Below, one piece after another: positions 4,143-47,047 of a stretch of 47,047 nt of DNA (positions within the stretch are counted from its first letter, which is position 1; each line of letters opens with the position of its first letter). Position numbers and translations under genes: made by a program. This stretch comes from an uncultured Candidatus Saccharibacteria bacterium (lineage in GTDB: Bacteria > Patescibacteriota > Minisyncoccia > Phycocordibacterales > WO2-35-19), in assembly GCA_964534305.1 (NCBI GenBank), contig CAZHPR010000004.1, positions 1,980 through 49,026 on the forward strand. The letters run 5' to 3'. The notes below the pieces were generated by a model. It worked only from the letters and a program-made list of their open reading frames with translations, was not told the DNA's origin and made no database searches.

Positions 4143-5246
4143 TTAGTCCCAAAATATTCTTTCGATTTGCTCTACAATGTTTTGTCCTTTGCAATGGGAA
4201 AGTATGCCAGTATACGAGCTTACAACTTGCTCAAGATATTCTTTTCTAACATATCCACTATCAAGACGAGTTTTGAGATCAAATAGTTTTTTAAGTAATC
4301 TGTTTTTAGTTTTTGTACGCAATACTCTTCGATGTGGCAACATTACATACCCAAGAAAATCCATACCTTGATAGGCTTTGCGTAAAATTATTTTATTTGG
4401 ATGCATCTCGATTAATAATTTTTCTCTGCAAAACTTTTTCAAATTTTGAATACAATTTTCTAAAAATTTTAAAGAATCAGAAACAATAACAAAATCGTCA
4501 CAATACCGAACATAACACCTCGCCTTAAGTGTATGTTTTATGTATTGATCAAGTTGATTTAAATAAACATTCGAGAATAGTTGACTTGTAACATTTCCAA
4601 GAGGTAAACCTTTGCCCGATGTAAATTCGAAAGAAAAAATGATTTGTTTTATTAAATATAGAAGTCTCTGGTCTATAATTTTTTTGGATAAAAGATCAAA
4701 CAAAATTTTATGATCTATAGAGTCAAAGAACTTCTTGATATCACATTTTAAAATGTAGCAGGATTTAGTATTATTTTTACTAACCTTGCTTAAATATTTT
4801 TCAAACGAAAATATTCCCGCATAAGTTCCTTTGGAATTTCTGGAGGAGTAGGAATGAAATATAAAACTTGGATCAAAAATTTGATACAATTTTCGATATA
4901 CAGCTTGGTAAAGAACCCTATCCCTTACACTGGCTTCATGAATTTTTCTTAGTTTTGGATCATTCTTGAAAAACACCTTATACTTATCGGGTTTCCAAAT
5001 CCCAGATACAAGCGAATTATGGAGAATAAATAAATTATTTTCTAGATTCAATTCAAATTGGGCCACATCTGGTTTTGATCGCTTCCCTTTTCTAAATTCT
5101 TTCCACGCATCCAATAAATTTTCAATACAAATTACATCATAAAAATTACAATTATGAGTACCCCCCCCCCGACACAACTCCTCCTGTTGTTCATAAGATA
5201 AGAATACTCCATCAGGATATTTATCGCACTGGTGAAAAATTTTCAA
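4143..5246 (-). CDS. Diversity-generating retroelement reverse transcriptase
   Basis: N-terminal DGR-RT pattern ENLLDAWKEFRKGKRSKPDVAQFELNLENNL...DPKLRKIHEASVRDRVLYQAV. Motif 4 is LPLGNVTSQLFSNVYLNQLD, the (I/L)GxxxSQ DGR hallmark. The catalytic motif is YVRYCDDFVIV (YxDD). It lies adjacent to a TR/VR pair. The start is uncertain: TTG at 5246 or 5177 as assembled, or ATG at 5194 if the G tract were 11 nt. Confidence 0.9.
   Translation of the reverse strand: MKIFHQCDKYPDGVFLSYEQQEELCRGGGTHNCNFYDVICIENLLDAWKEFRKGKRSKPDVAQFELNLENNLFILHNSLVSGIWKPDKYKVFFKNDPKLRKIHEASVRDRVLYQAVYRKLYQIFDPSFIFHSYSSRNSKGTYAGIFSFEKYLSKVSKNNTKSCYILKCDIKKFFDSIDHKILFDLLSKKIIDQRLLYLIKQIIFSFEFTSGKGLPLGNVTSQLFSNVYLNQLDQYIKHTLKARCYVRYCDDFVIVSDSLKFLENCIQNLKKFCREKLLIEMHPNKIILRKAYQGMDFLGYVMLPHRRVLRTKTKNRLLKKLFDLKTRLDSGYVRKEYLEQVVSSYTGILSHCKGQNIVEQIERIFWD
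5161..5170. repeat. C10 (+) / G10 (-) homopolymer inside the RT 5' coding region and the avd-frame upstream region
   Basis: Ten consecutive C at 5161-5170, bounded by a (5160) and g (5171). It encodes RGGG in the RT frame. Confidence 0.95.
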
Positions 5247-5524
5247 AACGAGATAAACTTGGTATTCACGCGGTTATAGAATCTCTATGTATAGAAATAC
5301 TATCTCTTTCAATTGGGGCAGCTTTAAAACCAAAGGGTTTAAAGCTGTACACCTTGGAAGTATTGCGTATAAAAATTGGAGTTATACAGAATTTAATAAG
5401 ATCAGAAAACGAAATTGGTATTATTGACCCAAAAACTTATATAAGAATCTCCGGGCAATTAGTAGAAATTTCAAAGATGGTAAACGGGTGGATAAACTTT
5501 GTATTAGGGAAAGAGTCTCCATAA
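5171..5524 (+). CDS. avd: Avd-like accessory variability determinant (four-helix-bundle family); no canonical start codon with the tract as assembled
   Basis: Not in the ORF track. The + frame is open from 5096 to the stop at 5522-5524 and reads ...VVHKIRILHQDIYRTGEKFSKRDKLGIHAVIESLCIEILSLSIGAALKPKGLKLYTLEVLRIKIGVIQNLIRSENEIGIIDPKTYIRISGQLVEISKMVNGWINFVLGKESP*. It matches Avd / 23S-IVS four-helix-bundle patterns as I recall them: F(P/S)KxxKxxLG, and a C-terminal E(I/V)xKMxxGWI. The first in-frame ATG/GTG/TTG is TTG at 5354. ATG at 5154 becomes in frame only if the C tract is 11 nt (or 8). Confidence 0.6.
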   Translation, partial: DTTPPVVHKIRILHQDIYRTGEKFSKRDKLGIHAVIESLCIEILSLSIGAALKPKGLKLYTLEVLRIKIGVIQNLIRSENEIGIIDPKTYIRISGQLVEISKMVNGWINFVLGKESP

Positions 5525-5550
5525 AATATGAAGACTCTTCTGACCCAGAA

Positions 5551-5666
5551 ATTTCCAGGCGAGCACCCCCGTTCGGATTCTTGTAGTCCGGATTGTTCCA
5601 GCTGAACCTCACCTTGTGGTTGTCGGGGTTCCAGTTGCCGTTCGCGACCTTGCCGGAAGGCAGACG
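5551..5666 (-). repeat. DGR template repeat (TR)
   Basis: 116 bp aligning without gaps to 5968-6083. The 17 mismatches are all T on the + strand here, which is A on the - strand. In the VR frame it encodes LPSGKVANGNWNPDNHKVRFSWNNPDYKNPNGGARLEI, with 8 Asn AAY codons. Confidence 0.95.
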
Positions 5667-5945
5667 CCCATATTAGCACCGCACTTTGTCCTTATCACCG
5701 GAAATCATTTATATTTTAAATAATTTCTTGAGTTATCTTTTCATGAGTAGAGGTATCACGAGTATATTCGTGCATAGTATAAAATGTGGCACGCAATTTC
5801 TTTATTTTGGCAAATTGTTATCCTGTTTTTGATAGAATCAATTTAACAGCCAATTTTTATTATATAAAAAGAAGTGACGGAGACCAAACGAGATCTCCGC
5901 CACACCGCTTCCCTCTTGCAGAAAAATTGAACAATGGAAGAAGAT

Positions 5946-6743
5946 TTAAGCAAGAAGGGGAACTTGGATTGCCAGGCGAGCACCCCCGCACGGATTCCCG
6001 CAGTCCGGATAGTCCCAGCTGAACCCCACCCTGCGGCTGCCGGGGTGCCAGTCGCCGAACGCGACCTTGCCGGAAGGCAGACGATTGTTTGGAAACCAGG
6101 TAAAAGTCCTGGGGTCCAGATATTGCCGCGTCACCGAATAATGGAGACCAAGAGCAAAGGCGTACCCACGCTGACTTAGCCAGTTTTTGCCCCTTGCAAC
6201 CAACTGATCAGGCGACATATTCATCGTGTCTTCGTCCGGCTCGATTGAATTGTTGATGAAGTGTAGTGTCGGTCCATCATTTGCTCCCGAGCCGGAATAA
6301 TGCACCACATCCATCTCTTCATAAACCGCAAGTCCAAGGCTTTTCAGGGCCTTTTCGACAGCATCCCGATTGGTGAGTCCGCCCGGATCAAAGACCGGGA
6401 TCACACTCCTCCAAGGAAGGGTGTCGGGAATAGCAAACCGTTCGCGAAAACGGATTTCAACTCCGAGATAATCCTTCGCAAACTTCTCTGCCTCCCTGAG
6501 CCACTGATCCGGGTCGGTATCTGTCGTACTGAACATGATGGGCGGGGCGACAATTGACGGCTCCACACTTTCCGACTGTGGGAGAACGAACCCGCGACAG
6601 ATAGCCGCCGGAAGTTCTTCAAGATGCTGCTCGTACCAGAAGATTTCAGCTTCGGTCAGAGCGAGAAAATTGGGGACTGCTTTGAGTCCCAAGTTATAGG
6701 CACGTTTGACTAAGGGTGTGTCCATTGGACGTTTCCTTTTCAC
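5946..6743 (-). CDS. DGR target (variable) protein with a C-terminal VR, probable C-type-lectin-like fold
   Basis: 265 aa with a GTG start. The last 45 aa or so, ...LPSGKVAFGDWHPGSRRVGFSWDYPDCGNPCGGARLAIQVPLLA, are encoded by the VR. The VR ends 7 codons before the stop, which is the canonical position. The gene is visibly GC-rich relative to its neighbours. Confidence 0.85.
   Translation of the reverse strand: MKRKRPMDTPLVKRAYNLGLKAVPNFLALTEAEIFWYEQHLEELPAAICRGFVLPQSESVEPSIVAPPIMFSTTDTDPDQWLREAEKFAKDYLGVEIRFRERFAIPDTLPWRSVIPVFDPGGLTNRDAVEKALKSLGLAVYEEMDVVHYSGSGANDGPTLHFINNSIEPDEDTMNMSPDQLVARGKNWLSQRGYAFALGLHYSVTRQYLDPRTFTWFPNNRLPSGKVAFGDWHPGSRRVGFSWDYPDCGNPCGGARLAIQVPLLA
5968..6083 (-). repeat. 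DGR variable repeat (VR)
   Basis: Counterpart of the TR. 14 codons are altered by 17 substitutions (A to G x11, A to T x4, A to C x2 on the coding strand). The 3'-terminal 16 nt on the coding strand (GGGGGTGCTCGCCTGG, + 5972-5987) are identical to the TR at 5555-5570 and contain no A, which is IMH-like. Confidence 0.95.
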
Positions 6744-7806: not shown

Positions 7807-7879
7807 GCGCCCGTAGCTCAGTCGGTAGAGCAGCTCCCTTTTAAGGAGATGGTCGAAGGTTCGATTCCTTCCGGGCGCA
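7807..7879 (+). tRNA. tRNA-Lys (anticodon UUU)
   Basis: Manual cloverleaf: GCGCCCG TA GCTC AGTCGGTA GAGC A GCTCC CTTTTAA GGAGA TGGTC GAAGG TTCGATT CCTTC CGGGCGC A. Length is 73 nt. Confidence 0.9.
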
Positions 7880-7906
7880 CAAAAATTTGTGCAACACAAT
7901 TTTTAT

Positions 7907-12663: not shown

Positions 12664-14340
12664 ATGGTTGTAAATTTCAACGAAGATAAACAGAGACAAA
12701 AATTGGAAGACTTGCGAGAGAGAGAAGAAGAGAGCCTCGCAGAGATGATGTCTTCCAAGTATGGTCTCCCTTATATAGACCTGTCGGTCTCTCCTGTGAA
12801 CATAGATGCCCTTAGAGTAGTCAAAGAAGTTGAGGCCAGAGAAGCAGAAGTTGCCCCATTCAACATAATCAACAAAAAAATTTCTATTGGGATAATCTCT
12901 CCCAACAATTCAAAAACGACTGCTGTAATAGAAGATCTAAAATCAAGAGGTTATCTACCAGTAGTTTATATGGTATCGCACCAGAGTTTGGAAAAAGTTT
13001 GGAGTCGATACAAAGATTTGTCATACTCTCTAGAAACAAAAAGTGGTGCCCTCGATATATCCAATGACGATATTCAAGATCTGATAAAAAAAGTCAAAGA
13101 CATCGGAGATATAAAGTCTTCGATAGAGGAAATCTTGGCACAAAAAAAGAGCTACCGAATATCAAGAATACTAGAAGTAATACTCGCTGGAGCTATTGCC
13201 GTCAATGCCTCAGATATTCACATAGAGCCAGAAGACAGGAGTGTTCGTCTTCGTTTTAGACTTGATGGAGTTTTAAATGATATCCTGGCTTTTGACACCC
13301 AAACATTTAGCCTTTTGTTATCAAGGATAAAATTAACATCAAACTTAAAATTAAATGTTAAAGGCAAAGCACAGGACGGAAGATTTAGTATAAAACTCGG
13401 AGATATAGAAATAGAAATCAGAACTTCTCTACTACCAGGCAATTATGGTGAGTCGGTAGTGCTTAGGGTACTCAATCCAAACGCAATAGGAGTACCCCTA
13501 GAAGATCTTGGTATCCAAGAAGATTTGCTTCAAATACTGATGCGAGAACTAAAAAAACCAAACGGCATGATCCTAAACACAGGACCAACCGGAAGCGGAA
13601 AGACAACCACCCTGTATGCCTTTATGAAAAAGATTTATAGTCCTGGAATAAAAATAATCACGATTGAAAATCCGATTGAATATCACCTCAAAGGGGTAGT
13701 CCAGACTCAAACAGATGAATCGGCTGGGTACACCTTCCTAGAAGGTTTGCGGAGTGCCCTGCGACAAGATCCGGATGTGATAATGGTTGGAGAAATTAGA
13801 GATAGCGAAACAGCCGAGATCGCAGTCAATGCAGCACTCACCGGTCACCTCGTGTTTTCAACCCTTCACACCAACAACGCTGCTGGTACCTTCCCTAGAC
13901 TTATAGACCTCGGAGTAAATCCAAAAGTTATAACCTCCGCTGTAAACATCGCAATGGCTCAAAGACTGGTGAGAAAGCTTTGTACAAAGTGTAGGGAAAA
14001 AATAGAGCCAACTAGCAAAGAAAAGGAGCTGGTAGAAAGCACCCTCAGCCAAATAAAAAACACCAAACTGACTTCTGGTTTAAATACAGCAGATATTTAT
14101 GGCCCTGTCGGTTGTAGTGAGTGCAATTTTACCGGCTTTAATGGTAGAACCGGCATCTATGAAGCAATCCTCACGGATGAAAAGGTAGAAATGGTAGTAA
14201 AAGAAAACCCAAGCGAGAGAGAAATAGAAAAAGTCTCAAAAGATCAGGGTATTTTAAACATGAAGCAAGACGGTATCATCAAGGTTCTCAAAGGTATCAC
14301 TTCCCTAGACGAGCTAGGTAGGGTGATAGATCTAGATTAA
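12664..14340 (+). CDS. pilB: GspE/PilB-family type II/IV secretion (type IV pilus assembly) ATPase
   Basis: Walker A GPTGSGKTTT, Asp boxes, Walker B DPDVIMVGEIRD and a His box LTGHLVFSTLHTN. A tetracysteine cluster is present (CTKC...CSEC). The start is taken at ATG 12664, because the upstream part of the ORF is read-through of the GC repeat. Confidence 0.9.
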   Translation: MVVNFNEDKQRQKLEDLREREEESLAEMMSSKYGLPYIDLSVSPVNIDALRVVKEVEAREAEVAPFNIINKKISIGIISPNNSKTTAVIEDLKSRGYLPVVYMVSHQSLEKVWSRYKDLSYSLETKSGALDISNDDIQDLIKKVKDIGDIKSSIEEILAQKKSYRISRILEVILAGAIAVNASDIHIEPEDRSVRLRFRLDGVLNDILAFDTQTFSLLLSRIKLTSNLKLNVKGKAQDGRFSIKLGDIEIEIRTSLLPGNYGESVVLRVLNPNAIGVPLEDLGIQEDLLQILMRELKKPNGMILNTGPTGSGKTTTLYAFMKKIYSPGIKIITIENPIEYHLKGVVQTQTDESAGYTFLEGLRSALRQDPDVIMVGEIRDSETAEIAVNAALTGHLVFSTLHTNNAAGTFPRLIDLGVNPKVITSAVNIAMAQRLVRKLCTKCREKIEPTSKEKELVESTLSQIKNTKLTSGLNTADIYGPVGCSECNFTGFNGRTGIYEAILTDEKVEMVVKENPSEREIEKVSKDQGILNMKQDGIIKVLKGITSLDELGRVIDLD

Positions 14341-45192: not shown

Positions 45193-45263
45193 GCGGGATT
45201 AGTTAAATGGTATAATATCGGTTTTCCAAACCGAGGTCGGGAGTTCGATTCTCCCATCCCGCA
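45193..45263 (+). tRNA. tRNA-Gly (anticodon UCC)
   Basis: Manual cloverleaf: GCGGGAT TA GTTA AATGGTA TAAT A TCGGT TTTCCAA ACCGA GGTC GGGAG TTCGATT CTCCC ATCCCGC A. Length is 71 nt. Confidence 0.9.
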
Positions 45264-45273
45264 CAATAAGAAC

Positions 45274-46921: not shown

Positions 46922-46971
46922 GTTTTGAGATTGGCTTAATTAATGATTTTATTGTATCATCTTTTAATCAT

Positions 46972-47042
46972 CGGAGTGTAGTATAGTGGTAGTATAAATG
47001 CTTTGGGAGCATTAGGTCCGAGTTCGATTCTCGGCACTCCGA
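46972..47042 (+). tRNA. tRNA-Pro (anticodon UGG)
   Basis: Manual cloverleaf: CGGAGTG TA GTAT AGTGGTA GTAT A AATGC TTTGGGA GCATT AGGT CCGAG TTCGATT CTCGG CACTCCG A. The D-stem has two G-U pairs, and G37 is as expected for Pro. Confidence 0.85.
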
Positions 47043-47047
47043 ACGAA

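Follow-up and report, generated by a model that had tools for sequence, protein, structure and literature searches.

The DNA analysed here is a stretch of 47,047 bases (38% G+C) from an uncultured Candidatus Saccharibacteria bacterium; it is referred to as the window, and all coordinates are window positions. It carries a diversity-generating retroelement (DGR) in which the gene avd (accessory variability determinant) and the reverse transcriptase (RT) gene lie head to head and overlap across a run of ten cytosines. The target gene of the DGR is found at 5946-6743 on the - strand and codes for 265 amino acids from GTG 6743 or 259 amino acids from ATG 6725. Its 3′ end contains the variable repeat (VR, 5968-6083, - strand), which codes for the C-terminus of the protein and is matched by a 116-nt repeat, the template repeat (TR), at 5551-5666 on the same strand. 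The VR thus lies inside the target open reading frame (ORF), and the repeat pair is adenine-specific: the two copies differ at 17 positions, and all 17 fall at a T on the + strand of the TR, which is an A in the - sense. Since every mismatch is of this kind, the TR, the RT and the target are read in the - sense and avd in the + sense. On the - strand the elements follow compactly in the order target gene with VR, terminator-like hairpin, TR and RT, with avd on the + strand between the TR and the RT, and both the sense of the TR RNA and the opposed position of avd are as the original prediction, made from the letters of the window, had placed them. The target protein gave no match among Pfam or NCBIfam profiles. 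The C-terminal VR region of its gene is far more G+C-rich than the surrounding genome.

The RT gene (4143-5194, - strand) is readily assigned. Its translation matches Pfam RVT_1 with E=1.8e-24 and contains the DGR-type motif LGNVTSQ and the catalytic YCDD, placing it in the DGR clade of RTs. The conserved start is ATG 5194, with a second in-frame ATG at 5212, and these are joined to the body of the gene only when the run contains 11 or 8 G. The avd gene extends on the + strand from ATG 5154 through the run to the stop codon TAA at 5522-5524 and codes for 123 amino acids with 11 C; with 10 C its ATG is out of frame with the gene body. Between 5154 and 5194 the two genes overlap 5′ to 5′ on opposite strands, over 41 nt as assembled, with the run inside the overlap. 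The overlapping frames are antisense and codon-aligned, the Met ATG of avd lying opposite a His CAT of the RT and the Met ATG of the RT lying opposite a His CAT of avd.

The run itself occupies 5161-5170 and consists of exactly 10 C on the + strand (10 G on the - strand) between A5160 and G5171. It had been remarked upon as conspicuous in DNA this AT-rich, and it is indeed the sole run of C or G of at least 7 in the window, where no run of A or T of at least 9 is present either; at the composition of the window a run of 10 C is calculated to be expected about 0.006 times per 47 kb. It supplies Pro codons (CCC) to avd and, on the opposite strand, codon-aligned Gly codons (GGG) to the RT. The run starts 7 nt past the ATG of avd and 24 nt past that of the RT, a frame-shifting placement typical of a simple sequence repeat (SSR) contingency locus, and its length modulo 3 fixes the frame of both genes together. 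The lengths at which both are open (ON) are 8 and 11 in the window, and the assembled length of 10 is ON-1 or, equivalently, ON+2. As assembled, neither avd nor the RT has an in-frame ATG start. The + frame is open from 5096 to the stop codon at 5522-5524, the first ATG, GTG or TTG within it being TTG 5354, which gives an ORF of 56 amino acids, and the RT frame can be started only from TTG 5246 (a 367-residue ORF, 4143-5246) or from TTG 5177. Addition of one C, to make 11, joins ATG 5154 to the avd frame, giving the 123-residue protein that begins MSTPPPDTTPPVVHKIRILH..., and at the same time brings ATG 5194 on the - strand into frame with the RT, so that MNNRRSCVGGGGTHNCNFYDV... is fused to the RT body. 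A run of 8 C is equivalent for both genes. Recomputation of the ORFs reproduced the limits of both frames that had been given in the original prediction, and its frame arithmetic for one extra C is exact.

The suggestion that the + strand codes for an Avd-like protein is confirmed by hidden Markov models (HMMs), by homologues and by a structural model. The 123-residue conceptual protein matches the Pfam family bAvd (PF22296) with E=1.2e-9 and 39.0 bits, against a cut-off of 40, over positions 4-106 of the 107 in the profile, and the NCBIfam model DivGenRetAVD (NF033474) with E=9e-10 and 38.8 bits, against an equivalog cut-off of 80. Forty Avd homologues show 51-79% identity to it; they are mostly of about 120-125 residues, and for 37 of the 40 a match to PF22296 is precomputed. 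The N-termini of the homologues follow M(S)TPP(P)D.T.P.IIHKIRILH, as predicted by the 11-C frame, and ATG 5154, followed by the Pro codons derived from the run, is therefore the genuine start of avd. When the Avd alignment was searched as a sequence profile against the PDB, no match was found. The AlphaFold2 model of the window protein (pLDDT 93.7, pTM 0.85) has four long helices arranged as a four-helix bundle and was aligned by Foldseek to the Avd of Bordetella phage (4dwl) with a TM-score of 0.79-0.81 on the query length and 0.84-0.87 on the target length (root-mean-square deviation ~1.7-2.3); the Avd chains of the DGR ribonucleoprotein 8ub7 were matched as well. From the HMM matches, the homologues and the predicted fold, the + frame at 5154-5524 is judged to be a true Avd.

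Related loci were gathered in scans with the Avd alignment, which yielded the best 80 of 121 relatives in species-representative genomes and the best 80 of 298 relatives in metagenomes. Nearly all belong to the candidate phyla radiation (CPR, or Patescibacteria), and one comes from Nanoarchaeia. The inverted avd and the C run of the window both recur among them. In all 153 loci with RT data avd adjoins the RT gene, which is on the opposite strand with its 5′ end overlapping or abutting the 5′ end of avd. Across 125 lineages the ATG of avd is a median of 7 nt ahead of the tract and the ATG of the RT a median of 29 nt past it, with a median ATG-to-ATG overlap of 54 nt (range 21-99). More than 140 independent loci have a C run at the corresponding place, in A+T-rich DNA and with Avd identities as low as 40%. 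Over 149 loci the tract is C7 in 10, C8 in 16, C9 in 40, C10 in 58 and C11 in 14. When the first 80 loci were taken together with the window segment (428 kb), the homologous run was found in 68 of the 81 sequences, and 68 of the 69 runs of C or G of at least 8 proved to be this tract. Because such runs are almost confined to this one position, and are kept there down to 40% Avd identity, the tract would appear to be selected at the level of the nucleotide sequence. At three loci (L033, L069 and L071) N gaps or an odd CCGGT repeat fall exactly at the position of the tract, L033 having C12 beside an N gap, and scaffolds or assemblies appear to break at the tract.

The frame state of each locus was taken as the number of added C (0, 1 or 2) that gives an open ATG start, corresponding to ON, ON+2 and ON+1 respectively. 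One and the same correction opens the ATG of avd and the ATG of the RT in 144 of the 149 loci, and because a single correction fits both genes, both ATGs are real starts from which the run is read through. Dereplication gave 129 flank lineages in 135 entries, and the frame-state counts sum to 130 entries, of which 30 are ON, 25, including the window, are ON+2 and need one C, and 75 are ON+1 and need two. This distribution is far from uniform (chi-square p=2.5e-8), and ~77% of the 130 entries are out of frame as assembled. Tracts of at least 9 C are in frame in 14 of 98 cases (14%), compared with 16 of 32 for those of at most 8 C (chi-square p=9e-5), and the fraction for the longer tracts also differs from one third (binomial p=2e-5). 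Most of the loci that have lost the run (e.g. L022, L025, L042 and L131) are in frame. The modal length goes with the frame class, being C10 where ON is 9 and C9 where ON is 8 or 11. Interrupted runs that keep the ON+1 length are seen in L016 and L108, where C9-10 is followed by TGA, the ATG frame of L016 reading CCC CCC CCC TGA, and in L119 and L123 (CCTCCCCCCC).

Both reading frames are maintained whatever the frame state. Past the tract, the avd ORF runs for 111 codons or more in all 144 loci, and an RT ORF of at least 300 codons is present in 25 of 30 loci that are in frame, 26 of 27 that need one C and 63 of 70 that need two. The RT frequently has a second open ATG when the tract is in the ON+1 frame (48 of 125 lineages; 96 of 125 if any NTG start is allowed), and less often in the ON+2 frame (ATG in 7 of 125, any NTG in 37 of 125), while Avd has almost no such alternative starts. 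The ON+1 ATG sits 2-30 nt past the tract on the RT strand and derives from avd codons of the type xxC ATT. ON+1, the commonest natural state, could on this reading of the frames be one in which the RT is made and Avd is not.

Differences in tract length are also seen between sequences that are otherwise the same. In six lineages the 850-nt flanks are 100% identical and the tract differs by a single C: L141 and L143 (9 and 10 C), L139 and L140 (9 and 10), L088 and L089 (10 and 9), L016 and L108 (9 and 10), L121 and L132 (8 and 9), and L128, L134 and L136 (10, 10 and 9, none of them in frame). The closest pairs of species, with 72-84% nucleotide identity, are likewise unlike in tract length and frame. 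For two of the lineages the comparison extends to the VR. L088 and L089 differ over ~2.9 kb in the tract, at 20 positions in the VR and by 2 other mismatches. Between L128 and L134/L136 there are 12 differences over ~1.6-1.9 kb downstream of the tract, all of them in the VR, and none over 1.3-1.5 kb upstream; the distance from tract to VR is ~800-900 nt. All 32 VR differences (12 of 12 and 20 of 20) are at adenines of the TR, and the TRs are identical. Since the changes are adenine-specific, the DGR must be considered active in both lineages, and these sequences indicate that its activity persists where the consensus tract is out of frame. The hypervariable features of these loci are the VR and the C run.

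For the window's own locus, three independent Logan assemblies are available around the tract; all are identical to the window there and have 10 C. A search with the flanks of the window's tract and a variable gap between them found no match in a collection of genome contigs, which lacks the window's species. L082, the only Logan assembly of this lineage to span the VR, has a VR identical to that of the window (one assembly). The other two of the three Logan contigs break immediately on either side of the VR, L081 ending at window position 5937 and L083 at 6150, and these breaks may reflect heterogeneity of the VR in those samples or confusion between the TR and VR repeats.

Signals for translation and transcription were examined around the two starts. 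Of 26 long ATG-started ORFs of the window, only 3 have a Shine-Dalgarno-like motif in the 20 nt upstream, and TATAAT is found 7-10 nt ahead of the ATG in several genes (among the long ORFs, for example, at 12664, 38537, 29067 and 24146). This suggests that mRNAs in this organism are leaderless or have very short leaders. Because Shine-Dalgarno motifs are so rare, the bare ATG 5154 would be a normal start. TTG 5177, which is preceded by AGGAGG, was considered as the true start of the RT and given little weight, the spacing being only 2-3 nt and Shine-Dalgarno motifs being rare here; the AGGAGG is probably a mere complement of the Pro-Pro codons of avd. A scan for sigma-70 promoters between 4900 and 6000 gave 3 sites, compared with 2.9 expected, and none of these fits the start of avd or of the RT.

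A hairpin at 5507-5546 encloses the stop codon of avd and adjoins the 3′ end of the TR in the - sense, with a minimum free energy of -21.0 kcal/mol and z=-5.9. At the homologous position z is below -1.5 in 104 of 125 distinct loci, with stem sequences that differ. Of 91 loci, 42 have a T-rich tail after the hairpin in the TR sense and 19 have one in the avd sense. A simple terminator scan of the window between 4900 and 6000 did not flag the 5507-5546 hairpin. It may represent a candidate terminator, possibly bidirectional, or a 3′ structural element of the TR/DGR RNA in cassettes of the TR-(avd)-RT type (architecture B3). Were the hairpin to terminate or process the TR RNA, a long transcript from the TR into the RT, antisense to avd, would not be the rule, and transcription of the RT and of avd would in each case begin inside the 5′ end of the other gene. 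The original prediction had expected such a TR-to-RT transcript to run antisense to all of avd; the opposition of the strands holds, but the long transcript is doubtful given the conserved hairpin between TR and avd. A further, intrinsic-terminator-like hairpin with a T run lies downstream of the target gene at 5874-5903 on the - strand (12 pairs, 7 of them G-C, tail TTCTTTTTAT).

To account for these observations we propose, with a probability of roughly 55%, that the run is a slipped-strand, phase-variable gate common to avd and the RT. Each ATG is on the far side of the run from the body of its gene, so both genes would have to read through it, and the length modulo 3 would determine for the two jointly if ATG and protein body are connected. 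The length would be changed by slipped-strand mispairing during replication, and competence for mutagenic retrohoming would become a heritable and reversible ON/OFF trait. Most natural populations would be at an OFF length, with ON variants arising so frequently that selection maintains both genes and the VR goes on diversifying. A contingency tract is favoured because the run is conserved at the nucleotide level, has a mode of C9-C10, is sited in the 5′ coding region, occurs as a mixture of ON and OFF states, differs by single units and is accompanied by genes that are maintained. The C9-C10 mode is within the length range of known poly-G contingency loci. The geometry of the locus, its conservation, the length polymorphism in otherwise identical sequences, the intact ORFs and the turnover of the VR are all seen directly in the loci compared, and from them we infer a high rate of length change in vivo, an abolition of Avd and RT synthesis at OFF lengths and an adaptive role for the switching. 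The earlier idea that a contingency tract switches avd and the start of the RT is in this way supported by the comparative evidence, namely the conservation, the one-C polymorphism and the joint correction in 144 of 149 loci. Whether a single hypermutable run acts more generally as a master switch of targeted hypermutation across the DGRs of CPR and some DPANN lineages is an evenly balanced question. Such a switch would perhaps have three states, with Avd and RT made at ON, the RT only, or products of leaky decoding, at ON+1, and neither at ON+2.

Several points weigh against such a gate. The lineage of the window is without length variation, with 10 C in 3 of 3 assemblies, and the evidence as a whole is at the level of assemblies. 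The frame states are not random, with 75 at ON+1, 25 at ON+2 and 30 at ON among the 130 entries (p=2.5e-8), and ON+1 could itself be a selected and decodable state. To judge from its alternative ON+1 ATG in 48 of 125 lineages, the RT may partly escape the gate, which would then act mainly on Avd. Homopolymers are also a classic site of sequencing and assembly error, and this could in principle be the origin of the one-C differences seen within otherwise identical lineages. For the excess of ON+1, which is larger than an equilibrium of tract lengths would account for, two explanations remain, which are not exclusive of one another: the ON state is costly and rarely dominant, with a mutational bias that parks the run one unit above it, or ON+1 is partly decodable.

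Slippage at the level of the RNA or the ribosome is the main rival to the phase-variable gate, or else a leaky component of the same switch. An out-of-frame length, typically ON+1, would here be the normal genotype, and Avd and RT would be produced at a low, throttled level either by slippage of RNA polymerase, possibly aided by the position of the run no more than ~10-17 nt from a leaderless 5′ end, or by a +1 ribosomal frameshift on CCC-C in avd and GGG-G in the RT, the length polymorphism in the DNA being tolerated noise. This would resemble the frameshifting of transposases or gag-pol and the slippage-rescued poly(A) frameshifts of insect endosymbionts. For tRNA-Pro, CCC-C is the classic site prone to a +1 shift, and ribosomes stall at Pro codons in succession. 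The excess of ON+1 (75 of 130) is consistent with such recoding, as is the way in which the modal length follows the frame class; since the mode is C10 where ON is 9 but C9 where ON is 8, it is the ON+1 state and not the length that looks favoured. The ON+1 length is also kept in L016/L108 and L119/L123 despite a substitution that interrupts the run, and intact ORFs and VR turnover are found in lineages never seen in frame. The window contains genes for tRNA-Lys(ttt) at 7807-7880, tRNA-Gly(tcc) at 45193-45264 and tRNA-Pro(tgg) at 46971-47044; the anticodons of the tRNA-Gly and the tRNA-Pro are not the ones fully complementary to the run codons GGG and CCC, and the presence of a tRNA-Pro(ggg/cgg) or a tRNA-Gly(ccc) elsewhere in the genome would bear on the propensity to frameshift.

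A dedicated recoding site should, on the other hand, be fixed, whereas all three frame states occur here and change between otherwise identical sequences. No signature of a shifty stop or of a programmed +1 shift was seen: of 75 ON+1 loci, only 3 have a 0-frame stop 6 nt or less from the tract. In 27 of the 75 the 0-frame codon that comes next is CGA, which the conserved Asp/Glu of Avd also explains. Moreover, loci without the run are mostly simply in frame, and a +1 shift is least easily reconciled with ON+2 (ON-1), which is the state of the window. Known poly-G/C contingency genes have clear null phenotypes at OFF lengths, and the best-documented cases of transcriptional slippage are at runs of A or T, not C or G. 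Recoding as the normal mode of expression is accordingly regarded as possible but unlikely.

An artefact of sequencing, of PCR stutter or of assembly, with a tract that is truly always in frame and merely miscounted, is improbable. Long homopolymers are error-prone on all platforms, some of the loci come from Nanopore assemblies (contig_ names, MFD metagenome-assembled genomes), the assembly breaks or N gaps at the tract in L033, L069 and L071 fit such a view, and so does the drop in the in-frame share with longer tracts. However, an out-of-frame share of ~77% among 130 entries from many projects and assemblers is beyond plausible error for runs of 9-11 nt, and the locus of the window has 10 C in three separate assemblies; together these results speak against the one-off, 1-nt assembly error that the original prediction had offered as its other explanation. 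Stutter in PCR and sequencing mainly shortens runs, and the dominant deviation here is in the opposite direction, one C extra. Several lineages that were observed again also show no change in length, but among these are cases of one contig present in two collections.

Slightly less probable still is that the run is a by-product of dual coding, in which Pro-Pro-Pro in Avd and Gly-Gly-Gly in the RT force a pure C/G sequence without any regulatory role and the out-of-frame DGRs are broken or breaking. The codon-aligned frames mean that PPP and GGG together need CCCCCCCCC, TPP and PPP recur in homologues that are in frame, and L131, L133 and L135 retain PPP as CCC CCG CCA. Most tracts are nevertheless out of frame with the ORFs intact and the VRs diversifying, and the tracts are often longer than 9 nt with lengths that are not multiples of three. 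Loci without the run have other residues at this position (TPSD in L022, TPTPS in L025 and TPRG in L042) and are intact; because these replacements are tolerated, the PPP and GGG peptide motifs would seem to be dispensable. Dual coding was rejected as the sole cause, since most runs are out of frame and loss of the run is accompanied by loss of the motif.

There is an equally slight chance that the run serves as an element of the nucleic acid itself, either as a spacer or roadblock between divergent promoters or as an element for the structure or processing of a long TR-RT RNA. Its conservation at the nucleotide level would fit, as would its place between the two divergently oriented starts, in a genome whose leaders are very short or lacking. 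Against this, the run is downstream of both ATGs and within both coding frames, the promoter scan was at chance level, the conserved TR/avd hairpin argues against a long TR-RT RNA, and the lengths vary freely by single nucleotides. Simple decay to pseudogenes was rejected, as the out-of-frame ORFs are as intact as the in-frame ones and the VRs still turn over.

The tract has clear parallels among known poly-G/C contingency loci, such as those of Campylobacter jejuni, Neisseria and Haemophilus, with which it shares a run of ~8-11 nt in the 5′ coding region, an A+T-rich genome, a mixture of ON and OFF states in close relatives, differences of one unit and an intact downstream ORF. It differs from them in that two genes, on opposite strands, read a single tract, and in that the product controlled is a machine for mutagenesis and not a surface structure or restriction-modification enzyme. 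In addition, the hosts are environmental CPR bacteria, OFF is dominant (86% for tracts of at least 9 C), and the switching is putative. In Haemophilus influenzae, TA repeats between the divergent promoters of hifA and hifB alter the spacing of the -10 and -35 elements. There too a single repeat tract co-controls two divergent genes; the control is, however, transcriptional, while here the run is inside both coding sequences, past both ATGs, and sets the frame. The poly(A) tracts of Buchnera and Blochmannia and the slippage sites of insertion sequence (IS) elements and dnaX (PMC1088944) likewise combine a conserved apparent frameshift with a selected downstream ORF, and the ON+1 excess is similar. 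These cases involve A/T runs and one gene each, whereas here the run is of C/G, two genes are concerned and the length varies in identical strains.

With the DGR of the Bordetella phage BPP-1 (order avd-TR-brt, architecture B1) the window has in common an RT with [LIV]GxxxSQ, an Avd that is a four-helix bundle (TM-score ~0.80-0.87 to 4dwl and 8ub7) and adenine-specific transfer from TR to VR. In BPP-1, unlike the window, avd is co-directional and upstream of the TR, without an overlap with brt or a homopolymer. The RNA spacer that lies between the TR and brt in BPP-1 and primes cDNA synthesis has no obvious counterpart in the window, where a hairpin and the 3′ end of the opposite-strand avd occupy that position.

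The layout itself corresponds to architecture B3, TR-(avd)-RT, which makes up 90% of the CPR/DPANN DGR set and requires at least two transcription units (Wu et al, 2018, Nucleic Acids Res, PMC5758913). The window and all 153 of the related loci with RT data fit the order and strands given for B3, that is target with VR, TR, reverse avd and RT; the description of B3 in that paper does not mention a 5′-5′ coding overlap of avd and RT, a homopolymer or out-of-frame starts (PMC5758913). An inverted avd is therefore already known. The primary survey of DGRs in CPR is reportedly that of Paul et al. 2017. In the full-text literature searched, no description was found of the 5′-5′ overlap of avd and RT, the conserved homopolymer, the predominance of out-of-frame lengths or the length polymorphism, and a prior mention in Paul et al. 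2017 (Nat Microbiol) or in a 2026 preprint is possible. The original prediction knew of no described case; this stands for the tract within the literature searched, but not for the inverted avd, which is that of B3.

Comparison of the sequences examined supports the combination of a DGR with a simple-repeat contingency switch, and a switch in the DNA and slippage by RNA polymerase or the ribosome both stand as ways in which the run may act. A practical consequence is that gene callers truncate avd or misplace the starts of avd and the RT in most loci, in the window giving a 56-residue fragment of avd and a TTG-started RT. Because of this, surveys of CPR DGRs may under-call Avd or flag the genes as pseudogenes. 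A homopolymer that gates the frame of two essential proteins in common would be a built-in regulator of DGR mutagenesis. If the phase-variable gate is correct, the reach of contingency loci would include uncultured lineages from the environment, and a new class of function would join those under their control. Whether a cell can diversify the target protein would then become a trait that is stochastic, heritable and reversible, with a contingency locus placed over a diversity generator. A repeat switch would in effect sit atop a retroelement that rewrites a binding protein, and these tiny symbiotic cells would pay the cost of hypermutation only in a subpopulation.

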